This document shows, piece after piece, positions 15,594-16,022 of a DNA stretch of 43,137 bases. The first letter of the stretch is position 1; every line of letters begins with the position of its first letter. The notes beneath the pieces were generated by a model. The model was not told the origin of the DNA. It worked only from the letters and a program-made list of their open reading frames with translations, and did not search any database. Origin of the DNA: a virus. Its lineage: Duplodnaviria > Heunggongvirae > Uroviricota > Caudoviricetes. The position numbers and the translations under genes are program-made. Location of the stretch: IMG/VR virus record IMGVR_UViG_2541047960_000005; one strand, written 5' to 3'.

Positions 15594-16022
15594 ATGTATT
15601 GCCGTGCTGTACCAGTTCTTGTTTTGATATTAGCCAGTCTGACAACTGGCTGCACAAAAGATGTATCGACAAATAATTATGATGCTTCTCTGTATCACTC
15701 AGATAAATTAATAAAGTCGCAAAATTTGAGCTCATCGGAACGTACCCCTGATGCCAGTGAAGAAATCAGGCAGTATGCCATTCAGGTCAGGAAAGCCATA
15801 GAAGAACAGTTAAAGGATGCGAGTAAGTATTCAGGAAAAGAGTGTTCACTGAGAATGTATATGGCCCCGAATGGTCTTCTGCTACAGGTTAAAAGAGAAG
15901 GTGGAGACCCCGATTTATGTCGTGAAGCGATGAATGCGGTGAAGCATGCTGATATACCAGTTCCGCCGTCTCCGGAAGTATATAAAGTATTTCACAATGG
16001 AGTGCTGGATTTTAAACCGTGA
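15594..16022 (+). CDS. lipoprotein carrying a TolA C-terminal (domain III)-like domain
   Basis: Signal MYCRAVPVLVLILASLTTGC; the C-terminal ~70 aa YSGKECSLRMYMAPNGLLLQVKREGGDPDLCREAMNAVKHADIPVPPSPEVYKVFHNGVLDFKP aligns closely with my recollection of the E. coli TolA C-terminus (...YAGKTCTLRIKLAPDGMLLDIKPEGGDPALCQAALAAAKLAKIPKPPSQAVYEVFKNAPLDFKP). Confidence 0.75.
   Translation: MYCRAVPVLVLILASLTTGCTKDVSTNNYDASLYHSDKLIKSQNLSSSERTPDASEEIRQYAIQVRKAIEEQLKDASKYSGKECSLRMYMAPNGLLLQVKREGGDPDLCREAMNAVKHADIPVPPSPEVYKVFHNGVLDFKP

Follow-up and report, generated by a model that had tools for sequence, protein, structure and literature searches.

A TolA domain III-like lipoprotein gene in the stx cargo slot of a lambdoid prophage: anatomy, family and a possible role as import decoy

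Colicins and many phages enter Escherichia coli through hijacked Tol and Ton systems, and the protections known against them are immunity proteins, receptor loss and receptor-masking lipoproteins. Mobile elements encode small outer-membrane exclusion lipoproteins that block the entry of competitors, such as Llp of phage T5, Cor of phages phi80, N15 and mEp167, and the plasmid protein TraT. Boeke, Model and Zinder reportedly described in 1982 how periplasmic g3p occupies TolA and brings about colicin tolerance and superinfection resistance; Levengood-Freyermuth, Click and Webster are said to have obtained group A colicin tolerance, together with leakiness, by overproducing TolA domain III in the periplasm (in 1993); and Howard et al. 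reportedly blocked TonB-dependent transport in 2001 with the TonB C-terminal domain placed in the periplasm. Here we analyse a 142-codon open reading frame (ORF) at positions 15594..16022 (+) of IMG/VR virus record IMGVR_UViG_2541047960_000005, a Caudoviricetes sequence of 43,137 nucleotides that is a lambdoid prophage (the whole of this stretch is called the window below). The ORF encodes a predicted lipoprotein that ends in a homolog of TolA domain III, which we tentatively propose to be a decoy for ligands of TolA.

The protein is like domain III of E. coli TolA (structures 1S62, 3QDP, 1TOL, 2X9A and 3QDR) in its fold, disulfide pair, GGDPxLC motif, LDFKP strand and 54% sequence identity. 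Unlike TolA, which is anchored in the inner membrane, it is prophage-borne, stands free behind a lipoprotein signal and a 33-residue tether, and is predicted to lie in the outer membrane. With the laboratory dominant-negatives (periplasmic TolA domain III or TonB C-terminal domain) it has in common an uncoupled motor tip domain, which in those constructs competes with the energised protein; they are artificial and soluble, whereas the phage protein is natural, predicted to be lipid-anchored, encoded by a mobile element and under selection. It resembles Llp, Cor and TraT as a small predicted outer-membrane lipoprotein of a mobile element with a proposed entry block at the envelope, but those proteins act on an outer-membrane receptor (FhuA or OmpA, for example) and this one would mimic a periplasmic energy transducer. 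For periplasmic g3p the TolA-dependent import route is the same and competition takes place at the interface that we propose for the phage protein, yet g3p occupies host TolA, and the phage protein imitates TolA and would occupy the ligands of invaders. Finally, like lambda Bor, other late-region morons and stx2AB, the gene is lower-GC cargo between Q/pR' and the structural genes, although it is unrelated to Bor and stx2AB as a protein and differs from them in its proposed activity.

An earlier note on this DNA, written from the sequence alone, was not aware of any described prophage mimic of TolA domain III. In a full-text search of literature readable without subscription we found no functional study of a prophage- or plasmid-borne TolA-III or TonB C-terminal-domain decoy, and to that extent the remark stands. 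It does not extend to the gene, which is neither rare nor unannotated: the family is very common, has been named (misleadingly) by annotation pipelines, is present as PHROG 5772 and figures in a plasmid gene listing (PMC10269471). What would be new is the proposed mimicry of an energy transducer instead of the masking of a receptor, the sequence of the gene family itself being already known.

Anatomy and fold of the 142-residue protein

The ORF is intact, begins with ATG, has GGAG 8 nt upstream of this start, and encodes a product in three parts, namely a lipoprotein signal peptide (Cys20), a disordered tether of 33 residues and a domain of 89 residues:

15594..15653, + strand: lipoprotein signal peptide, residues 1-20, lipobox L-T-T-G-C, Cys20 being the predicted lipidated first mature residue (from sequence)
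15654..15752, + strand: tether, residues 21-53, low-complexity, predicted disordered, different between alleles (from AlphaFold2 confidence and allele comparison)
15753..16022, + strand: TolA domain III-like domain, residues 54-142, with the stop codon (from sequence, profile and fold)

The similarity of the last part to TolA domain III is far beyond chance. Residues 54-142 align without a gap to residues 333-421 of E. coli TolA and end on the same last residue, with 48 of 89 positions identical (54%); GGDP-x-LC, the two cysteines of the disulfide and the LDFKP terminus are among the identities. A phmmer search of the PDB returned 1S62, 3QDP, 2X9A and 1TOL, all of them E. coli TolA domain III, at E 8e-27, and Pfam PF06519 (TolA_C) matched residues 52-140 over profile positions 7-96 of 96 with 81.9 bits against a cutoff of 25 (E 3.8e-23). 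The AlphaFold2 (AF2) model has moderate confidence over the domain (block means of the predicted local distance difference test, pLDDT, of 74-86) and values below 50 over residues 1-53; its top Foldseek matches were E. coli TolAIII, and TolAIII crystal structures superposed on it at a root-mean-square deviation of 1.1-1.9 A (1.4-1.9 A for the top matches) and a target-normalised template-modelling (TM) score of 0.82-0.87. Helices are modelled at residues 56-70, 76-79, 106-118 and 127-135 and strands at 84-90, 96-104 and 137-140, in the element order alpha1, beta1, beta2, alpha2, alpha3, beta3, the last being the edge strand G136-V-L-D-F-K141; as modelled, this is the TolAIII fold of three helices on a three-stranded sheet. 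C84 and C109, a predicted disulfide pair invariant in 49 homologs, align with C363 and C388 of TolA. The nearly position-for-position match to the TolA C-terminus described in the earlier note, with its GGDP-x-LC and LDFKP landmarks, is therefore real, and the comparison it had suggested between an AlphaFold model and a TolA domain III structure agrees with it (the deviations and TM scores just given); the domain is larger than the roughly 70 residues assumed there, extending over about 89 (residues 54-142).

For the N-terminal part we looked for a positively charged n-region, an uncharged hydrophobic run, a lipobox of the form [LIVMFWSTAG]2-[LIVMFYSTAGCQ]-[AGS]-C and a residue other than Asp at +2. 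The N-terminus (MYCRAVPVLVLILASLTTGC) agrees with the PROSITE-type lipobox rule: Arg4 is followed by a hydrophobic run devoid of charge and then by L-T-T-G-C (...VLILAS-LTTG-C20), with Thr in place of the usual Leu at position -3 and Thr, not Asp, at +2, so that every sequence feature expected of an outer-membrane lipoprotein is present. Gly19 and Cys20 are invariant in 11 close family members, and Cys20 also among 49 diverse short homologs. The protein is thus predicted to be an outer-membrane lipoprotein lipidated at Cys20, as the earlier suggestion of a secreted or lipid-anchored product with its cysteine in an LTTGC box had it.

The 142-residue protein is not TolA, nor could it work as TolA. 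It lacks the inner-membrane anchor (domain I) and the long helical domain II, measures 142 residues against the 421 of TolA, has only 33 disordered residues ahead of the domain, and is encoded outside the tol-pal operon, in the late region of a lambdoid prophage between phage tRNA genes and an esterase gene. Since the membrane anchor and the long helical domain are absent, coupling to the TolQR motor is impossible. The equivalog model PRK09510 scored 104.6 bits, below its cutoff of 213, with only model positions 297-386 matched, while TIGR02794 (74.2 against a cutoff of 59.45) was passed through its C-terminal 97 positions alone; because this C-terminal match by itself clears the cutoff, PGAP names the protein 'cell envelope integrity protein TolA'. 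The names that sources give to the family ('TolA', 'colicin import membrane protein') are all automatic, and PHROGs places it in phrog_5772, 'unknown function'. Recognition of the family corrects a widespread mis-annotation of 142-residue proteins now labelled 'cell envelope integrity protein TolA'.

Spread, alleles and selection of the family

Of 5,426 complete E. coli genomes, 897 (about one in six) have a homolog; so do 125 IMG/VR contigs, and such proteins are encoded in about 1,300 plasmid records as well. They fall into three allele groups, with identity down to 67% and a lipobox in all of them, and the 142-codon frame was intact in each of the 85 sequences screened (the window and 84 other loci). 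The alleles agree less well in amino acids (68% identity) than in nucleotides (78%), for which reason arms-race selection was suspected; the Nei-Gojobori ratio of nonsynonymous to synonymous substitution (dN/dS), at 0.2-0.45 in every region and overall and 0.19-0.36 in the domain, rules out positive selection at the whole-region level. The family is under purifying, not diversifying, selection. The alleles are mosaic, and their divergence is greatest in the tether and at the domain's C-terminal end; between groups A and C, both dS and dN are greater in the tether than in the domain.

These observations bear on the idea that a tolA gene was once captured and is now decaying, so that only a functionless fragment of it is carried along in a recombination hot spot; this idea we regard as very improbable. 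Many database copies are indeed frameshifted or truncated, and the cargo of the slot in which the gene lies is interchangeable (stx2AB in Stx2 phages, TerB plus DUF3927 in EDL933). Decay is at odds, however, with the dN/dS of 0.2-0.45 and the intact frames in 85 of 85 sequences, with a lipoprotein signal that has been added and conserved, with an architecture that recurs in dozens of clusters at 50% identity as well as on plasmids, and with the absence of any detectable DNA similarity between the phage gene and host tolA in the 5,426 complete E. coli genomes, which follows from the fact that only 897 of them match though all carry tolA. By the same missing DNA match, conserved lipobox and intact frames, we rejected a truncated host tolA or tolA pseudogene. 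In allele C, many database copies (P0021-P0031, P0036) have one and the same frameshift about 18 codons from the end (…PAPLRRKYIKYFKMGCWILNP…); it deletes alpha3 along with the beta3 strand used for binding, so that a considerable share of the copies are probably inactive.

Allele C, the commonest group (phage mEp460 type), is nearly always followed by a second, divergent TolA C-terminal-domain lipoprotein gene of 124 codons lying directly upstream of the holin gene; the pair has a promoter-like site (10/12) 30 nt ahead of the first ATG and a terminator after the second gene. Second lipoproteins of this kind are 124-143 residues long and about 28% identical to the window protein (L004, 6547-6921; L002, 6580-6975), and one is also encoded on the O157:H7 virulence plasmid pO157 (L092, 5947-6378), near psiB/psiA/hok and toxB.

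When 1.8 billion cluster representatives were searched exhaustively with phmmer, 330 matches were obtained. Among the best 150 of these, 78 were 105-170 residues long and 55 of the 78 had a lipobox, never with Asp at +2 (0 of 55), so that the lipobox-bearing representatives are predicted to be outer-membrane lipoproteins; several other representatives have ordinary signal peptides instead. The lipoprotein architecture recurs across dozens of 50%-identity clusters and on plasmids. On IncR and other Klebsiella plasmids the gene is placed after a thioredoxin-fold gene, a pairing that is perhaps not accidental because the TolA domain requires a disulfide bond; on the IncR-type plasmid NZ_MF510424.1 (L090), for example, a secreted thioredoxin-fold (DsbC/G-like) gene and then the lipoprotein gene occupy 6406-7435.

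Binding strand, probable TonB-like partner and the proposed decoy

In TolA, strand beta3 (A415-K420) is the site of beta-strand addition for the TolB N-terminus, colicin N and g3p-N1, and the removal of a single backbone amide by D418P or K420P abolishes all three bindings and gives a full tol phenotype (PMC4339652). Colicin A binds at beta2, on the other side of the TolA sheet (PMC4339652; PMC7391070). The corresponding beta3 of the phage protein, G-V-L-D-F-K, is free of proline and has LDFK identical to TolA 417-420, and F140 within it reaches at least 90% conservation in a set of 49 diverse short homologs; in beta2 the phage protein has LLLQVKR against MLLDIKP in TolA. Judged from these residues, it is predicted to retain the open beta3 edge strand for TolA ligands. 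TolAIII binds colicin N at about 1 uM and TolB at about 40 uM (PMC4339652), and as colicin N is thus some 40-fold tighter, a modest amount of decoy could catch invaders without saturating TolB; a decoy of the TolAIII type could, in other words, be selective.

The same prophage encodes a second envelope lipoprotein, whose gene is probably the partner of the TolA-like gene:

22176..22508, + strand: lipoprotein of 110 residues, lipobox LVMGC, mature part a TonB C-terminal domain, just after Rz/Rz1 (Pfam TonB_C, 1.3e-14)

Its residues 28-106 match structures of the E. coli TonB C-terminal domain, including the complexes with BtuB and FhuA, at E about 1e-16, and its place after Rz is that of Bor in lambda. 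PHROG 1267 labels it 'Rz-like spanin', which we consider a positional mislabel: the protein has a TonB C-terminal domain and no C-terminal membrane segment, and Rz and Rz1 are both present. Homologs occur in 1,616 of the 5,426 E. coli genomes. The EDL933 copy, identical at 107 of 108 positions, was detected by proteomics in uninduced cells at a level essentially unchanged under ciprofloxacin, and its detection without induction fits expression of the partner in the lysogen. A 'TolA' induced 32-fold by ciprofloxacin, EDL933_2012 (PMC11125564), was located as a genuine tail-fibre gene and dropped as expression evidence.

TolA and TonB domains are also associated elsewhere. In each of four cluster representatives (P0055, P0100, P0129 and P0176) one lipoprotein combines a TonB_C domain with a TolA_C domain behind it; of the fusion loci (L087, 8001-8630; L085, 1856-2563), that of P0100 is located within the nin region of a lambdoid prophage, and that of P0055 adjoins a phage-type DNA methylase gene. 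On a mobilisable 10-kb ColRNAI plasmid of Klebsiella pneumoniae (NZ_CP023944.1, L091), positions 5165-5898 (-) hold an overlapping two-gene operon for a TolA C-terminal-domain lipoprotein of 123 residues and a periplasmic TonB C-terminal-domain protein of 121 residues with an ordinary signal peptide, and the operon adjoins a gene cluster for a bacteriocin tRNase, its immunity and lysis. Such genes appear, uninterpreted, in the gene list of a cloacin-like plasmid (PMC10269471). Of seven long IMG/VR contigs that have the window-type allele, about six encode the TonB lipoprotein as well, and obligate pairing is not supported by the count taken from the other side (6 of 31 contigs, given below); the pairing is frequent, not obligate.

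We favour the reading in which the TolA-like lipoprotein is a tethered, unenergised decoy in the outer membrane for TolA ligands (group A colicins, g3p of filamentous phages and TolB), and give it a nearly even chance of being right. What we infer for such a decoy, from lipidation and outer-membrane location through binding and timing of expression to phenotype, is as follows. The protein would be exported and receive its lipid at Cys20, and Lol would deliver it to the inner leaflet of the outer membrane. Its TolA-III domain would roam there, below porins and receptors, at the end of a tether some 33 residues long. The domain would bind the ligands of TolA III without TolQR coupling and hence transmit no force, so that translocation domains of group A bacteriocins, the TolB that E-type colicins present, and Ff-type g3p would be captured instead of reaching energised TolA. 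Import of Tol-dependent bacteriocins and filamentous phages would then stall, and the lysogen would gain colicin tolerance and exclusion of Tol-dependent phages. The TonB C-terminal-domain lipoprotein of the same prophage would impose an equivalent block at the TonB boxes of TonB-dependent bacteriocins and phages.

An import block is favoured because it is the one activity that both domains would share, and a protective role fits because the carriers (prophages, bacteriocin plasmids, conjugative or mobilisable plasmids) profit from protection of their host in bacteriocin and phage warfare. The support is circumstantial and consists of the TonB C-terminal-domain lipoprotein of the same prophage, the fusions, the operon on the bacteriocin plasmid, the conserved beta3 strand and purifying selection. 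It strengthens the function suggested in the earlier note, which was a decoy or competitor causing colicin or phage exclusion, or else a remodelling of the envelope in lytic growth. More broadly, mobile elements of Enterobacteriaceae might hold a widespread class of genes forming an 'import firewall', in which tethered or periplasmic copies of the TolA-III and TonB C-terminal tip domains (one of each in the prophage studied here) act as decoys and give broad tolerance to bacteriocins of groups A and B and to phages dependent on Tol or TonB; this generalisation we put forward with some reserve, at rather less than an even chance. Its carriers would include lambdoid prophages, Col-type bacteriocin plasmids, IncR plasmids and pO157, with the two domains separate, in an operon or fused, an extension that we hold equally tentatively.

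A natural decoy of an energy transducer, if confirmed, would be a further layer of broad-spectrum protection. It would affect the performance of bacteriocin-based and phage-based antimicrobials, explain part of the colicin 'tolerance' common in natural isolates, and provide the Tol-Pal and TonB fields with natural dominant-negative probes. Carriers of the family include clinical Klebsiella plasmids and the O157:H7 virulence plasmid.

The stx cargo slot and readings tied to the phage cycle

The 801 bases at 15400-16200 recur without a difference in E. coli CE10 (O7:K1) and in at least 12 other complete genomes. Around the TolA-like gene we recognised the following features:

12734-13054: Q antiterminator gene (Pfam)
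13242..14384, - strand: OmpC/NmpC-type porin gene, between the Q gene and the late promoter (Pfam Porin_1, 6.7e-151; 'porin OmpC' by PGAP in CE10)
14533..14561, + strand: late-promoter-like site, ATGACA-17-TATAAT, 11/12, in the pR' position downstream of the Q and porin genes (consensus scan)
14751..14772, + strand: tR'-like intrinsic terminator hairpin, followed by a T run (consensus scan)
14775..15113, + strand: DNA methylase gene remnant, left flank of the slot (Pfam N6_N4_Mtase, 2.2e-23, C-terminal part only)
15154..15315, + strand: two tRNA genes, with anticodon CAT and Arg-TCG (ARAGORN; PGAP in CE10)
15434..15463, + strand: weak sigma-70-like site, TTTGCA-18-TATTAT, 9/12, 130 nt upstream of the ATG (consensus scan)
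16368..16387, + strand: putative terminator-like hairpin between the TolA-like gene and the esterase gene (consensus scan)
16621..18582, + strand: carbohydrate esterase (DUF1737, SASA and DUF6645; NanS-p/YjhS type), right flank of the slot (Pfam)

Downstream of the esterase gene the prophage has holin, endolysin and Rz/Rz1 genes. When positions 14400-17400 were compared with phage genomes, 389 records matched. In Stx2 phages both matched pieces flank stx2A/stx2B, with the methylase and tRNA genes on the left and the esterase gene on the right, and the methylase remnant, a partial pseudogene according to PGAP in CE10, matches these phages too. As the flanks of the ORF at 15594-16022 are those that enclose stx2AB, its placement in the 'stx slot', first suggested from the sequence, is correct. 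In two EDL933 prophages (L174, 26811-27406; L175, 38439-39034) a TerB-family gene and DUF3927 lie between the tRNA and esterase genes, from which the slot is seen to be a hot spot for exchangeable cargo. The G+C content of the TolA-like gene is 0.40-0.43, against 0.51-0.58 in the flanks. Moron-type signals at the gene are limited to consensus matches, namely the weak promoter-like site at 15434-15463, which is possibly the gene's own promoter, and the terminator-like hairpin at 16368-16387; those around the allele C pair are stronger but likewise consensus matches.

Several of these observations, and others, weigh against the decoy. Like stx2, the gene comes after the late promoter and terminator, and it may therefore be made mainly after induction, when exclusion counts less; its own promoter-like site is weak (9/12), and sigma-70-like sites in the region are no commoner in the consensus scan than in shuffled sequence. 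Sequestration of TolB could be costly to the lysogen. Many database copies, as noted above, are frameshifted near the C-terminus, the TolA lipoprotein is found in only 6 of the 31 TonB-lipoprotein prophage contigs with enough upstream sequence, and neither it nor its paralog nor the TonB lipoprotein had a match in PADLOC-DB v2 at E <= 0.01.

The late position also suggests a factor that weakens the envelope or aids release late in lysis, the main rival reading, to which we assign a minor share of the probability: the tethered TolA-III, made just before lysis from the late transcript that depends on Q, would tie up the TolB N-terminus so that energised TolA cannot act on TolB-Pal. The result, if this rather unlikely course were taken, would be a tol-like phenotype (loosened outer membrane, hypervesiculation, periplasmic leakage) that assists lysis or virion release, and by analogy the counterpart on a Col plasmid might, with as little likelihood, assist bacteriocin release. 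In keeping with this, the gene occupies the slot of the late-expressed stx2, with pR'/tR' on one side and the lysis cassette on the other, the allele C pair is directly upstream of the holin gene, the copy on the bacteriocin plasmid has a release (lysis) gene close by, a block of TolA-TolB beta-strand addition gives a full tol phenotype (PMC4339652), and tol-pal mutants hypervesiculate (PMC7391070). The pairing and fusion with a TonB C-terminal domain, however, are left unexplained, holin, endolysin and Rz/Rz1 genes are all in place in this prophage already, homologs reside in contexts unconnected with lysis (the nin region, IncR plasmids, pO157), and the TonB lipoprotein partner was found in uninduced EDL933 cells. 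Destabilisation of the outer membrane is, moreover, not a known effect of losing TonB function.

The protein might instead serve the phage's own infection cycle in another way, through TolA-III surfaces and a partner outside the known TolA ligands, for instance by sparing progeny or superinfecting relatives the loss of genomes to cells that are already lysing or by modulating a Tol- or porin-dependent step of DNA entry; this we consider improbable. The domain is a promiscuous hub for beta-strand addition (PMC4339652), the prophage has a porin gene of its own, and the alleles are mosaic with their greatest differences in the tether and the C-terminal end of the domain, all of which such a role would accommodate. 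Yet no candidate partner was identified, and the plasmid-borne homologs argue for a function not tied to one phage. Nor are tailed lambdoid phages known to require TolA.

The prophage carries three envelope-import cargo genes, those for the porin, the TolA-like lipoprotein and the TonB-like lipoprotein. The tRNA at 15154-15229 (anticodon CAT) is called Met by ARAGORN, whereas PGAP calls the identical gene Ile (a lysidine-modified reading of CAT). Between the holin and endolysin genes lie two ORFs, 19481-19969 (+) with DUF1327 and 19984-20469 (+) without a Pfam match, and the CE10 counterpart of 19481-20469 is annotated as a YdfR pseudogene and a hypothetical protein. A conserved hairpin-containing element, GGCATGGTGAATCCCCCTGAGCGGAGGGGC, at 16220-16249, is downstream of the gene in the window and upstream of it in allele C prophages (L002/L004), so that the two allele groups have inserted at opposite sides of a common landmark.

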